A stretch of DNA of 64,000 nt, taken from positions 5,580,001-5,644,000 of the forward strand of contig OZ024765.1 in assembly GCA_964016885.1 (NCBI GenBank). The letters run 5' to 3'. Made by a program: the position numbers and the translations under genes. Under the pieces are notes generated by a model. It was not told the origin of the DNA and made no database searches. It saw only the letters and a list, made by a program, of their open reading frames with translations. Below are positions 10,201-57,786 of the stretch, one piece after another; position 1 is the first letter of the stretch; every line of letters starts with the position of its first letter. Origin of the DNA: Eledone cirrhosa (lineage: Eukaryota).

Positions 10201-10975
10201 ACTCATTTTACTACCACATCCCCAACACCACAACCCCACCCCAGGGCACTCATTACACCCAGCAACACCAGTGAAAGGGGAGGGGGTGCTTAACTTAGTG
10301 AGCAGGGGGTGGATAAGGTGGGTTGTGTGGTGATGTGATGATGGTTGTGGTAGTGATGGTGTGATGGATGATGGGGGGGGGGGGGGGGTGATGATGATGG
10401 GGTATGAAGTTAACAGAGATGGTGATGGTAGCGGTTGTGGTGGTGTGAAGGAATTGGTTAGCTGCCGTATTACACAACAATAAGGGTGGTATCTGGTGCA
10501 GTGGTGTTGTCTGGTGCATTTGGTTAAGGAGTTAGGGAATGGGGCAGTGGGTATGGTGGGGGGGTTCTGTCTGCTGCATCTAAGCAGTGCACTGTGTTGG
10601 CATGTGCAGGTCGTTTTGTGCCCCCCCCCCCATTATCTGCTTCTTTAGCAGCTCTGGAATGTTGCACACACAAACTAGTTGCATTGTAGCAATTGGTGAC
10701 ACAAGCGCGCTGACCTAGCAACATATATATTTATATATTCATATATATATATATATATTTATATATGCAAAGGTTTTATTTAAAATTGTTGGGTTACAAC
10801 AAGTAAATATTTTATAACTGATATAAAGCACTCAAGTTTTTGGAGTAGATATACGATATTAAACAAATGGAAACTATATTTATAAAACCATATTTATTTC
10901 ATTATTTATTTCCTAATTTAATGGTCGCTTATAATATGGTACGTCAAAATTATTTATAAAGCTGTTTATATATTG

Positions 10976-11041
10976 TATTTTATCTGACGAAGGCATGCCA
11001 TATTTTTAATATGGTATCCCTGAAATATGTTTAATGAAATA
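10976..11041 (+). ncRNA. type I hammerhead ribozyme motif (slightly degenerate helix III)
   Basis: tattttat-CTGACGA-aggcatgccatat/atatggtatccct-GAAA-tatgt-TTA^atgaaata; helix I pairs with one G-U. Confidence 0.7.
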
Positions 11042-11330
11042 AATATGGTTTTATAAATATAGTTTCCATTTGTTTAATATCGTATATTTATATATATATA
11101 TGTAGGAGGTGAGTTTTATTGTAGCACGATAAAGCAATGGAAATATCGGATAAGTAGCACTCAACAGTTTATAGGACTGGAGTATAAATAATATAAGATG
11201 AAAAGATGGTTAAAAGAGTTCCATATATTTTATTATACGCATTTCAAAAATATCATCATGGGAGCAGTGAAGTGTTGATTTAAAACTTCACTGCTTGCAA
11301 GTGTTTTTTAAGCTTCATATCATGTCTCCC

Positions 11331-11395
11331 TATTTTATCTGATGAGAACGCAAATATCATCCCATGATTGATATTTGTTTTTGAAATGCATAATA
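11331..11395 (+). ncRNA. hammerhead motif with truncated helix I 3' arm
   Basis: tattttat-CTGATGA-...caaatatca/tgatatttg...-GAAA-TGCA-TA^ata; same family as 28207-28277. Confidence 0.55.
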
Positions 11396-11631
11396 TCCTT
11401 TATACTCTTCCCTTCATTCTACACATCTCACACATCTTATACACACCACGCATCTCAACGTACACCCACTTACATCTCTCTCTCCACCACCGGACCTTGT
11501 TACCCGGAGATTTACCCATTTGCATTGTCGAGGCTTCCAAACGACTTAAAGATATTTACTTATTGTTCCACAATGCTTCAAGCAAACTTCAATACTCTCT
11601 TATATATATATATATATATATATATATATAT

Positions 11632-53445: not shown

Positions 53446-56002
53446 AAGGAGCTGATCATCAGATCAAACCCCCAAAACAATGTTTCCATTGCTGATACTA
53501 TCTGTTGGTCACAACTTCTAGTGGAAGAAAACTGATCATCAGATCAGACCAAGGAAACAATGTTTCCATTGGTCTTTCCATTACTGATACTGTCTGTCAG
53601 TCACAACTCCTGGCAGAAGAAAGGAGCTGATCATCAGATCAGACCAAGGAAACAATGTCTCCATTGGTCTTTCCATTACTGATACTATCTGTTAGTCACA
53701 ACTCCTGTCAGAAGAAAGGAGCTGATCATCAGATCAGACCAAGGAAACAATGTTTCCATTGGTCTTTCCATTACTGATACTGTCTGTCAGTCACAACTCC
53801 TGGCAGAAGAAAGGAGCTGATCATCAGATCAGACCAAGGAAACAATGTCTCCATTGGTCTTTCCATTACTGATACTATCTGTTAGTCACAACTCCTGTCA
53901 GAAGAAAGGAGCTGATCATCAGATCAGACCAAGGAAACAATGTTTCCATTGGTCTTTCCATTACTGATACTATCTGTTAGTCACAACTCCTGGCAGTAGA
54001 AAGGAGCTGATCATCAAATCAGACCAAGGAAACAATATTTCCATTAGTCTTTCCATTGCTGATACTATCTGTCAGTCACAACTCCTGGCAGAAGAAAGGA
54101 GCTGATCATCAGATCAGACCAAGGAAACAATCTTTCCATTGGGCTTTCCATTACTGATACTATCTGTCAGTTACAACTCCTGGCAGAAGAAAGGTGCTGA
54201 TCATCAGATCAGACCAAGGAAACAATATTTCCATTGGTCTTTCCATTACTGATACTATCTGTTAGTCACAACTCCTGGCAGAAGAAAGGTGCTGATCATC
54301 AGATCAGACCAAGGAAACAATATTTCCATTGGTCTTTCCATTACTGATACTATCTGTCAGTCACAACTCCTGGCAGAAGAAAGGAGCTGATCATCAGATC
54401 AGACCAAGGAAACAATCTTTCCATTGGGCTTTCCATTACTGATACTATCTGTCAGTTACAACTCCTGGCAGAAGAAAGGTGCTGATCATCAGATCAGACC
54501 AAGGAAACAATCTTTCCACTAGTCTTTCCATTGCTGATACTATCTGTTAGTCACAACTCCTGGCAGAAGAAAGGTGCTGATCATCAGATCAGATGTTTCC
54601 ATTGCTCTTTCCATTACTGATACTATCTGTTAGTCACAACTCCTGACAGAAGAAAGGAGCTGATCATCAGATCAGACCAAGGAAACAATGTCTCCATTGG
54701 TCTTTCCATTACTGATACTATCTGTCAGTCACAACTGCTGGCAGAAGAAAGGAGCTGATCATCAGATCAGACCAAGGAAACAATGTTTCCATTGGTCTTT
54801 CCATTACTGATACTATCTGTCAGTCACAACTGCTGGCAGAAGAAAGGAGCTGATCATCAGATCAGACCAAGGAAACAATGTTTCCATTGGTCTTTCCATT
54901 ACTGATACTATCTGTCAGTCACAACTCCTGACAGAAGAAAGGAGCTGATCATCAGATCAGATCAAGGAAACAATGTTTCCATTGGTCTTTCCATTACTGA
55001 TACTATCTGTCAGTCACAACTCCTGGCAGTAGAAAGGAGTTGATCATCAGATCAGACCAAGGAAACAATGTTTCCATTGGTCTTTCCATTACTGATACTA
55101 TCTGTCAGTCACAACTCCTGGCAGAAGAAAGGAGTTGATCATCAGATCAGACCAAGGAAACAATATTTCCATTAGTCTTTCCATTACTGATACTATCTGT
55201 CAGTCACAACTGCTGGCAGAAGAAAGGAGCTGATCATCAGATCAGACCAAGGAAACAATATTTCCATTAGTCTTTCCATTACTGATACTGTCTGTTAGTC
55301 ACAACACCTGGCAGAAGAAAGGGGCTGATCATCAGATCAGACCAAGGAAACAATCTTTCCACTAGTCTTTCCATTACTGATACTGTCTGTTAGTCACAAC
55401 TCCTGGCAGAAGAAAGGAGTTGATCATCAGATCAGACCAAGGAAACAATGTCTCCATTGGTCTTTCCATTACTGATACTATCTGTCAGTCACAACTCCTG
55501 ACAGAAGAAAGGAGCTGATCATCAGATCAGATCAAGGAAACAATGTTTCCATTGGTCTTTCCATTACTGATACTATCTGTCAGTCACAACTCCTGGCAGT
55601 AGAAAGGAGTTGATCATCAGATCAGACCAAGGAAACAATGTTTCCATTGGTCTTTCCATTACTGATACTATCTGTCAGTCACAACACCTGGCAGAAGAAA
55701 GGAGTTGATCATCAGATCAGACCAAGGAAACAATATTTCCATTAGTCTTTCCATTACTGATACTATCTGTCAGTCACAACTGCTGGCAGAAGAAAGGAGC
55801 TGATCATCAGATCAGACCAAGGAAACAATATTTCCATTAGTCTTTCCATTACTGATACTGTCTGTTAGTCACAACTCCTGACAGAAGAAAGGAACTGATC
55901 ATCAGATCAGACCAAGGAAACAATCTTTCCACTAGTCTTTCCATTACTGATACTGTCTGTTAGTCACAACTCCTGGCAGAAGAAAGGAGCTGATCATCAG
56001 CT
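53446..56002. repeat. 95-bp satellite, about 27 copies
   Basis: aaggagctga recurs at 53621, 53716, 53811...; solitary related copy at 52646-52720. Confidence 0.96.
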
Positions 56003-57473
56003 CAAGAGGATAGTAAAAGGCTAGATGGCATGACAATCTTCCACTTCCATGAGGTGAGGCTCCTCATCTGTGATGCTACATGTGACACCTTCTCCAACAG
56101 CAACTTGGTGTGTTCAACAACCAGCCCAGGCTTTGCTGCCAGCCAGGCCTAACAGGGTAAACTGTCCAAGTGTTGGCCACTCTCTGGTAGGTTTGTGGTT
56201 GGGCCTGTATGTAGCAGTGGAGACTTCTGCTGTTCTTGGCCTGCCAGACCACATCTCAGCATACCGCTATCGGAGTGGGGTTAGCTGCCCACAAGTGTGA
56301 ACCCCACGAGGTGGAGTGGCTGTTCTAATGTGTTTCCCTTGCTGTCTTCTCTATTCTATCTGCTGGGGCCACGAGGTAGACAAATCCTTAAGCAGTGAGT
56401 AGTAAATATAGATCACACACACATACACCCATTGTAGTGTTAAAACAGTGACTCAATTCAATAGCTTCAACACATACTCTAGAATCTTCAACAGTTGCTA
56501 TTTTAGTAATGAAATGATTAATAACTTTAGTAAATCCCTCAAAATTCTTCATCAGTTATTTTGATATTAACTCAGCCCAAACCACATCTGGTTCTATGAA
56601 ACAATACCACCAATTATAAAGGATTCCTATTCAAATTAAAATAATTTATCATAATTTGATATACAAACCATATGTTAAGTTACTATCTTAGTATTGAAAT
56701 ATTTTATAATTTAAGCAAATCCCTCAAAATTCTTCAGTAACACTTTTGATGTCAAGCTGGCCAAAAGCATCTCTGGTTCTATGAAACAAAACTACCGATT
56801 TTAAAATATTCTTATTCCAATTAAAATCTTCCAACATAATTATATATAAGAACCATATGTTAAATTACTGTCTTAGTAATTAAATATTAAATAATTTTAG
56901 TAAATGCCTCAAAATTCTTCATTAATTAACTAAAATAGAGTGTATTTCACAAGAAACACAGTTATGATATGTTTAAATGGGTATCTTAGTTGTGAAAATA
57001 ATTAGTAACTATAATAAACCCCTCAAAATTCTTAATTTATTACCCACCCACCCCCATACACACACACACCCACACCCACCCACCCACCACCACCACAAAA
57101 AAAAGTACATTTAATGAGGAATGAGGTTAGACTGACACCGGTTTTGTGTCTCCGCCTCCGCCTTCATACACAATTAGTGGGTGTAAATAATTGAGAATTA
57201 TCTCCCTTGAAATTCTCCTTACACCGTTTTCTTTTTTTTTAAATATATATTTGTTGTTTCACATTTGACATACTATTGGTAAGTTGCGACTTATTTCTCC
57301 CCATCTTTCGCTTTCGCTAAGAAATTCCTAGAATTTCACACACAGAACTGTCTCAGACACCACTAATACTTAACTCAAGATATTGATATATATATATATA
57401 TATATATACATATATTAAAGTGTTAAACGATATTCAATGATTATGTCAAAGAATGAGTTTTACAGTAGATAAT

Positions 57474-57530
57474 ATATTTTGTCTGATGAGGACGTACTGT
57501 TGTACATCCGAAATATGTATAATAAAATGT
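57474..57530 (+). ncRNA. type I hammerhead ribozyme motif
   Basis: atattttgt-CTGATGA-ggacgtac(tgtt)gtacatcc-GAAA-T(ATGT)A-TA^ataaaatgt; family shared with 35360. Confidence 0.8.
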
Positions 57531-57786
57531 AATTGATCAAAAGAACATCTATTTTATTAATAGTTATATTTTAATGTATATATATATATAGAGAGAGAGA
57601 GAGAGAAATATTGATTGACTGTCGACCAATATATAAATACTACGTACACATACATATGTCTTTGTGTATATTATATGCCACATATATATATAATATATAT
57701 ATATATATATATAATATATATATATATATATATAATATTATTCATAATATATATGTGCGTGTGTGTATATATATATATATATAATG

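Follow-up and report, generated by a model that had tools for sequence, protein, structure and literature searches.

How a stretch of animal DNA comes to be strewn with self-cleaving RNA motifs, several of them inside the introns of one gene, is the question raised by a 64,000-nucleotide region of the Eledone cirrhosa genome (assembly GCA_964016885.1, contig OZ024765.1, positions 5,580,001 to 5,644,000; this whole stretch is called the window hereafter, and its coordinates are used throughout). An earlier reading of its sequence, the original prediction, had linked the minimal type I hammerhead ribozymes in its (TA)n tracts to Penelope-like retroelements (PLEs) and had proposed a class of abundant non-autonomous ribozyme retroelements targeting (TA)n. 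The link holds, as an autonomous partner encoding a reverse transcriptase (RT) and a GIY-YIG endonuclease (EN) was found upstream of six subfamilies, and the (TA)n targeting is borne out; the separate class, on the other hand, is not supported. The hammerheads of the window are very probably truncated pseudo-long terminal repeat (pLTR) ends of autonomous PLEs of the Hydra clade, and the same holds for their assignment to families; these are new families of a known clade and not a new non-autonomous class. The element class is already known, and the interesting part is the footprint of insertion, a paired head-to-head layout that likely records how the elements copy themselves into TA repeats.

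Judged from the order of their conserved parts and from their pairing, the motifs are real type I hammerheads. A strict type I descriptor, controlled with three sets of 100 dinucleotide shuffles of the window, returned six matches (cores at 10984+, 20570+, 28078-, 28215+, 35368+ and 57483+, with predicted cleavage after 11033, 20615, 28024, 28269, 35419 and 57521, respectively) and none in the 300 shuffles, all with CUGANGA, GAAA and NUH in type I order and helices I to III. These six, together with a seventh at 35663-, are the cores named in the original prediction, whose four proposed cleavage positions (20615, 28269, 35419 and 57521) are exact by this descriptor. The seventh is indeed a hammerhead, but its parts had to be reassigned: CUGAUGA lies at 35778- and helix II spans 92 nt, a layout common to 29 of the 36 copies collected from its family (D). 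A more general descriptor found eight hammerheads in the 64-kb window, adding 19029- and 19038+ to the earlier list and dropping the copy at 10976, whose helix III is mutated (TATGTT), and five in 110 kb of arbitrary genome, where the shuffled means were 0.025 and 0.2, respectively; by this measure the window is denser than the genome average. A looser descriptor gave ten in the same 110 kb, a count without a shuffle control, and a further degenerate copy with a UUGAAAA core, also new to the list, was read from the sequence at 35260-35297-. A scan of the window with Rfam placed no hammerhead among the best 150 of 580 matches, where TA-repeat artefacts predominate. Across the 3.0 Gb genome, a tight pattern for families A, B and C matched 69,662 times (about one per 43 kb; control 0), in line with the abundance claimed before. 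The genome thus contains no fewer than 70,000 hammerheads, a large load to which a second pattern, described below, contributes 11,362 matches.

Pairing was examined in 176 unique motifs out of 249 places. Helix I is paired in 163-175 of the 176 at each of its eight positions, and helix II pairing reaches 89.9% against 72.4% with shuffled partners (maximum 75.2%), positions 2, 3, 5, 6 and 8 exchanging A-U and G-C or U-A and C-G. The helix III loop remains self-complementary (TATATA in 63 motifs, TATGTA in 60, TGCGCA in 32) and its palindrome swaps covary. The covariation expected by the original prediction is therefore seen between families, in helix II as in the helix III palindrome, and because the changes separate families they amount to few independent events. 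Minimum free energy (MFE) folds of single copies are unexceptional (z -2.6 to +0.2), as expected because helix III has only 2 bp. Compared with the minimal PLE hammerheads of Cervera and de la Pena (2014; PMC4209133), the present motifs differ in that the G10.1-C11.1 pair is not conserved (G-C in 23 of 176, A-U in 69, G-U in 45 and U-U in 33) and that helix II has a C at position 4 which is left unpaired in 165 of 176; U-U at 10.1-11.1 is also frequent among published Hydra hammerheads (PMC8557442).

Similarity searches place each window copy among hundreds to thousands of candidates, and these lead to the parent elements. Indeed, in six subfamilies (A, A', B, C, C' and D) copies are contiguous upstream with a Hydra-clade open reading frame (ORF) for RT and GIY-YIG, a 3' untranslated region (UTR) of 0.9-2.0 kb joining ORF and hammerhead in each family, and tandem copies run from the hammerhead through two 3'-end sites about 90 nt apart to where the ORF begins. 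The family D copy at 35513-36744 is 92% identical to a tandem element (L213) with a period of 3558 bp and an intact 785-residue frame; at 1.24 kb it also breaks the range of 150-500 bp formerly given for all elements. Family B has an intact 821-residue frame (L349) and a tandem period of 3940 bp, family A one and the same 3' UTR from ORF end to hammerhead in 10 of the 10 loci fetched for this test, and family C copies are likewise linked to an ORF, as are those of A' (L347, L363) and C' (L356, L358, L391). The layout is that of the Hydra clade, a single ORF with RT followed by a C-terminal GIY-YIG domain, as seen in the two intact frames. The RWK and DKT motifs appear as RVRWKT and ADKTS (D), RLRWT and SDKTN (B), or RLRWR and SDKTN (C), and the CxCx5C, CxxC and CxH motifs as CNCTYPDNC, CKLC and CRH (D) or CNCRIKNKC, CNLC and CLH (B), with the same layout in A and C; a CCHH motif is absent from these proteins, judged by eye. 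The pLTR hammerhead, the (TA)n targets, the partial tandem and inverted copies and the tail of the clade were all found. Furthermore, an alignment by hhalign with the Neptune ORFs of this genome extends across RT and EN (probability 96.8%, E 2e-10), the fold matches of an alignment-based predicted protein model are RTs, including the telomerase protein TERT, and the nearest Atlas clusters consist of hypothetical proteins, of which some contain GIY-YIG or HTH_animal domains. Some results weigh against this assignment: the protein model is weak (predicted local distance difference test, pLDDT, 55), and searches of Pfam and of PDB sequences with the Hydra-type proteins gave no match.

The proposal of a separate non-autonomous class can be restated as a rival, in which the short copies are true non-autonomous retroposons, akin to short interspersed elements or to retrozyme monomers, with an internal promoter of their own and mobilised in trans by Hydra proteins. 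Their fixed 5' end, small size and high copy number would suit it, vertebrate retrozymes have been argued to derive from pLTRs (10.64898/2026.07.22.740005), and short copies may still be transcribed on their own. In a tree of family B, however, short and long copies are intermixed and have variants in common (label changes number 15, against 13.7 when shuffled), which argues against a separate lineage; the tree comprises 168 columns and 32 short and 20 long copies, a single row being kept from among 80 for each locus and label, and its restriction to this one family counts on the other side. Moreover, junctions vary from copy to copy, same-strand neighbours of one family within 6 kb are 1.5-3.9 kb apart in five of five cases and do not form 150-450 bp arrays, and short family C copies begin at +1 (see below) and hence lack the TATA box. 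This rival is therefore unlikely, and ORF continuity in six subfamilies favours truncated autonomous elements. Metazoan non-LTR retrozymes (PMC7229834; 10.64898/2026.07.22.740005) resemble the present copies in their type I hammerheads, their short non-coding AT-rich repeats, their link to PLEs and their tens of thousands of copies (up to 120,000 in the axolotl), but they are head-to-tail arrays of 150-450 bp expressed as circles, whereas the copies here occur singly or head to head and are contiguous with PLE ORFs. No such array was found in the window or around the first 100 consecutive matches, the places where they were sought.

Among published systems, the closest is the Hydra clade of C-terminal EN+ PLEs (Craig et al. 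2021; PMC8557442), which includes Hydra-1_Obim of Octopus bimaculoides with a hammerhead and (TA)n targets. In the parts of that work consulted, the clade has a single RT and GIY-YIG ORF with RWK, DKT, CxCx5C, CxxC and CxH motifs, a type I hammerhead close to its 3' end, in which the base of helix II is often flanked by an unpaired nucleotide on either side, and insertion into (TA)n with partial tandems, an inverted truncated copy and a tail at one end, all as here. The differences are as follows: units of 3.5-3.9 kb with a 3' UTR of 0.9-2.0 kb against elements generally below 3 kb (a size typical rather than diagnostic), a tail of about 90 nt against 30-40, a helix III of 2 bp with a 6-nt palindrome against mostly 3-4 bp in its table, hammerheads other than the one listed for Hydra-1_Obim, and at least 69,662 matches against a small number of families. 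The count also exceeds the 2,000-9,000 per genome of PMC4209133, a study that has in common with ours dispersed single motifs ascribed to truncated PLEs, opposite-strand pairs 100-700 bp apart, palindromic helix III, covarying families and a U3-A8 core variant. We found no paper on genome-wide hammerhead counts in a cephalopod, in a search that left subscription papers and bioRxiv supplements aside, and the main text of PMC13282606 contains no mention of hammerheads or ribozymes.

The footprint was read in the first 100 tight-pattern matches on one contig (C1), which were not selected by their structure. Their 3' ends are distributed bimodally, 53 being short (30-70 nt after the cleavage site) and 35 long (110-160 nt), with 5 others and 7 uncalled. 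Head-to-head pairs combine one end of each kind, in 20 of 24 pairs called by script and in 22 of 22 read by hand (p 2e-7; 25 were read and three excluded because the 3' end was replaced, the copy read into a tandem ORF, or two separate insertions were involved), and immediately upstream of 19 of the 52 copies without a partner there is an inverted 3' fragment. In a wider set, the DNA upstream of 166 short copies is an inverted arm of the same group in 110, an arm of another family in 2, a TA tract in 10 and other DNA in 44. As to how far the arms of the 22 pairs reach in the 5' direction, the short-tail arm is the longer in 11 and the long-tail arm in 2, eight being about equal and one unresolved (p 0.02).

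This asymmetry bears on a simpler explanation, in which a single cDNA primed at the long site folds back and the second arm, copied from it, ends at the short site through TA microhomology. Such folding back requires a short-tail arm nested within the long-tail arm, yet the short-tail arm is longer in 11 of 13 asymmetric pairs and is several times the only one to carry the ORF (L348, L351, L353), which argues against a simple fold-back and fits two priming events. The near-perfect palindromes of family B centred on ATAT, the private variants common to the arms of a pair and the TATAT-like microhomology of short sites would be accounted for, but many junctions have extra bases and families A and C lack a palindrome at the hot spot described next, and we regard fold-back as very unlikely compared with priming at two sites.

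The 5' ends are not scattered either. In family B, 15 of 35 copies, from 10 insertions, have their 5' end 65-75 nt upstream of the core; the wider set has peaks at -124/-125 in B (36 of 103) and -125 in A (9 of 74), with lesser clusters at about -138 in A' and -103 in C, and each peak is the A of a TCA motif. The reference sequences of families C and C' have TATAAAT at -31. A G stands just before this +1 position at 24 of 67 junctions overall and, outside family B, at 10 of 19 (p 0.001 against 19%; five rows with continuing native sequence removed); an extra G at a 5' junction is the expected outcome of copying a cap. The TCA hot spot is thus likely to be a capped transcription start. On the other hand, no copy among 330 starts exactly at the cleavage site and only 6 of 330 start within 6 nt of it, so that there is no pile-up there, which indicates that the templates were uncleaved or re-ligated.

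Taken in outline, priming at two sites, head to head, with run-off at the template's 5' end, is a probable account of these footprints. Transcription would start at TCA(+1), 64-88 nt upstream of CUGANGA, from a pLTR promoter, and yield a capped RNA; the element protein, probably as a dimer, would nick both strands of a (TA)n tract, and the short site, some 45-55 nt beyond the cleavage site on its 3' side, would serve for extending one nick and the long site, at about 130-150 nt, for extending the other, on an RNA presumably uncleaved at the hammerhead or re-ligated. With an RNA beginning at +1, both cDNAs would run off the capped 5' end to leave leader copies of 170-260 nt joined as a palindrome; with a read-through RNA the arms would be longer and extend into the ORF. 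The two cDNAs would finally be joined head to head. In a stricter form of this proposal, the protein dimer uses two fixed positions on a single uncleaved and capped RNA to prime both strands, each insertion is a long-plus-short palindrome and most hammerheads are leader run-off copies. The chances of this form seem to us evenly balanced, the arm-length bias speaking for it, as a longer short-site arm is expected if both enzymes travel on one RNA and the trailing one is unable to overtake, and two cross-family joins speaking against one RNA being obligatory.

Several points weigh against the proposal as a whole or in part. Of the 13 asymmetric pairs, 2 have the longer arm on the long-tail side, and a close reference was lacking for 4 of the 11 calls of a longer short-tail arm; 2 of 112 inverted arms come from another family, so that one RNA is not obligatory. 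Families A and B have no clear TATA box, a G precedes +1 at only 14 of 43 family B junctions, and the wider sets used for 5' peaks, the base before +1 and upstream arms include loci picked by similarity and are not unbiased. By the general consensus, TATAAAT and TCA may be read as TATA box and initiator.

A precedent comes from the Poseidon element PAc (Frangieh et al. 2024; PMC11167929), which in vitro has two internal RT start sites, extends both strands, is predicted to act as a dimer and has a hammerhead whose cleavage is protein-assisted and dispensable for insertion. Two start sites that define the tail, AT-rich targets, extension of both strands and an uncleaved RNA template are all likenesses; PAc belongs to another clade, however, its hammerhead overlaps the ORF start instead of lying upstream of the ORF, no pairing of one long with one short end and no 5' run-off are reported in the portions of the paper available, and there the Poseidon protein in vitro had no strand difference in start site, which also counts against our proposal. 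A search for papers on 5' run-off or long/short pairing of PLE copies, again with subscription papers and bioRxiv supplements left aside, found none, although older Penelope papers may cover parts of it. As for the ribozyme itself, it most likely cleaves only as a dimer or with help from a protein and would serve to process multimeric element RNA, dimer-dependent processing being a published proposal (PMC4209133). It is kept across families whose proteins are 40-60% identical and is therefore probably selected in the active element, and the dispersed single copies are most likely passengers. The tails of families A, A', B, C and C' have in common an ACTC...GAGT hairpin just 3' of the short end site (for example in 27893-27985-), a candidate protein-binding element.

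One of the two cross-family joins involves a second kind of parent. Neptune-type ORFs were considered as parents of families A to D and rejected, being those of family E only, whose parent has a 938-residue frame; the ORF adjoining family A in one locus (L147) is a separate insertion. The core of the family E hammerhead reads UUGAAAA, which is the U3-A8 variant known from PMC4209133; its helix II has 4 bp and its palindrome is ACCGGU, and the window copy is a degenerate version of it. The pattern of this hammerhead has 11,362 exact matches genome-wide (control 0), many of which are paired head to head. The 210 bp upstream of 35360, formerly included in the element there, are such a Neptune-type element in opposite orientation. 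A Neptune long end is thus joined to a Hydra short end at 35125-35471, and in another locus (L182) a family H short end to a family C long end. A genome-wide search for GIY-YIG gave 10,597 first-look candidates, the 30 best loci being mostly Neptune-type endonucleases with frames of up to about 940 residues.

The host gene bears on a last alternative. We take it to be SUPT3H from weak PF02269 matches (E 0.09 and 1.7, below the cut-off, 10 kb upstream on the plus strand) and from known motifs; further exons, canonically spliced and in matching phase, precede the window by about 2.6 and 1.5 kb. As predicted, sense copies occupy its likely introns, those at 10976, 20562 and 28207 in the intron ending at 30777 and that at 35360 in the next; a partial sense copy at 11331 is intronic as well, the copies at 28016 and 35663 are antisense in introns, and the hammerhead at 57474 lies beyond the last exon found. 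Six further hammerheads, forming three head-to-head pairs, lie between the first SUPT3H-like exons, some 4-5 kb upstream of where the window begins (L151, 5190-6500). That intronic sense hammerheads have been domesticated to cleave SUPT3H pre-mRNA and so regulate it could be read from the four near-intact sense cores, but the copies are 92-97% identical to dispersed repeats, helix III has 2 bp and is mutated in one copy, the sense copies lie 7-10 kb apart with antisense copies in the same introns, the MFE folds are as unexceptional as stated above, and in vitro no cleavage was seen with monomers of related minimal motifs (PMC4209133). We give this alternative hardly any credence, and neither cleavage of the pre-mRNA nor a regulatory role at SUPT3H is supported.

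Features of the window (families of elements and likely exons of the host gene)
Feature	Position	Strand	Details
Family A' inverted arm	10767..10905	-	long 3' tail, ends at (TA)n; stops 3 nt 5' of cleavage site; 96.9% identity to long ORF-linked copy
Family A' direct arm	10911..11090	+	short 3' end; hammerhead 10976-11041 with mutated helix III; core 10984, cleavage after 11033
Family B head-to-head remnant	11104..11395		long-tailed minus arm 11104-11260; plus arm 11273-11395 has part of a hammerhead (core 11339) without its cleavage side
Family H palindrome	18899..19087	both	cores 19029-, 19038+; 4-bp helix III and GUA site; long end on the left and short end on the right; approximate left boundary; no parent ORF assigned
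Family A inverted long-tail piece	20454..20485	-	
Family A copy	20490..20670	+	short 3' end; hammerhead 20562-20623, cleavage after 20615; starts exactly at TCA(+1), non-native G just before
Family B left arm	27893..28147	-	long 3' end; core 28078-, cleavage after 28024; starts at +1
Family B right arm	28146..28310	+	short 3' end; hammerhead 28207-28277, cleavage after 28269; starts at +1; near-perfect 165-bp inverted repeat with left arm
Likely SUPT3H coding exon	30778..30839	+	GELLMLFEDDSMDEVKQDRLV; AG/GT ends, phase fits neighbours
Family E, Neptune-type 3' end	35125..35332	-	long tail; degenerate UUGAAAA-core hammerhead 35260-35297; joined head to head with family C' copy
Family C' copy	35335..35471	+	short 3' end; hammerhead 35360-35427, cleavage after 35419
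Family D	35513..36744	-	near-whole 3' UTR and pLTR of Hydra-clade element, internal (TA)n; hammerhead 35663-35783, core 35778, 92-nt helix II, CACGUG loop, GUC site after 35668
Likely SUPT3H coding exon	43863..43938	+	
Likely SUPT3H coding exon	45336..45457	+	FKDW...YLAYETIAQ
Likely SUPT3H exon	46660	+	canonical splice sites, matching phase
Likely SUPT3H coding exon	49436..49549	+	ADIREALRRY; last exon found
Family C inverted long-tail piece	57416..57470	-	
Family C copy	57473..57575	+	short 3' end; hammerhead 57474-57529, cleavage after 57521

Other places in the window recall parts of these elements. A lone family A long-tail fragment without hammerhead stands between (TA)n tracts at 58169-58328, and a partial hammerhead-like motif with GAAT for GAAA (62800-63000-, core 62972-) belongs to another TA-flanked repeat family. 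Three candidates were rejected: the 95-bp minisatellite at 53483-56004 (26.7 copies) has a CTGATGA in each unit without helix II pairing or NUH site, the 185-bp repeat at 56493-56925 is without the GAAA/NUH half, and the GAAA half for a second CTGATGA in family D (36644-) is absent from the commonest variants. Further hammerhead families, with loops such as CTAG, TGCA or CAATTG, occur in flanks or arbitrary stretches elsewhere in the genome (L306, L307, L311, L012, L016, L127, L256), and a remnant resembling a long interspersed element of RTE type, judged by eye, lies at 2900-3100- of the window, with related DNA in several fetched loci.

The route of PLE integration and the role of the hammerhead are named as open questions in the parts consulted of PMC8557442 and PMC11167929. 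In the genome of E. cirrhosa there are young and abundant families whose ORFs are intact, and predictions that can be counted follow from their copies: each of the two start sites is used once in an insertion, the template is uncleaved and run-off occurs at a capped 5' end. If the stricter form of the proposal is true, one mechanism would cover the pLTRs, the one-sided tail and the inverted copy, and introns would be seeded with thousands of near-perfect hairpins. Furthermore, within introns the head-to-head arms would pair into long double-stranded RNA, with possible consequences for RNA editing or silencing.

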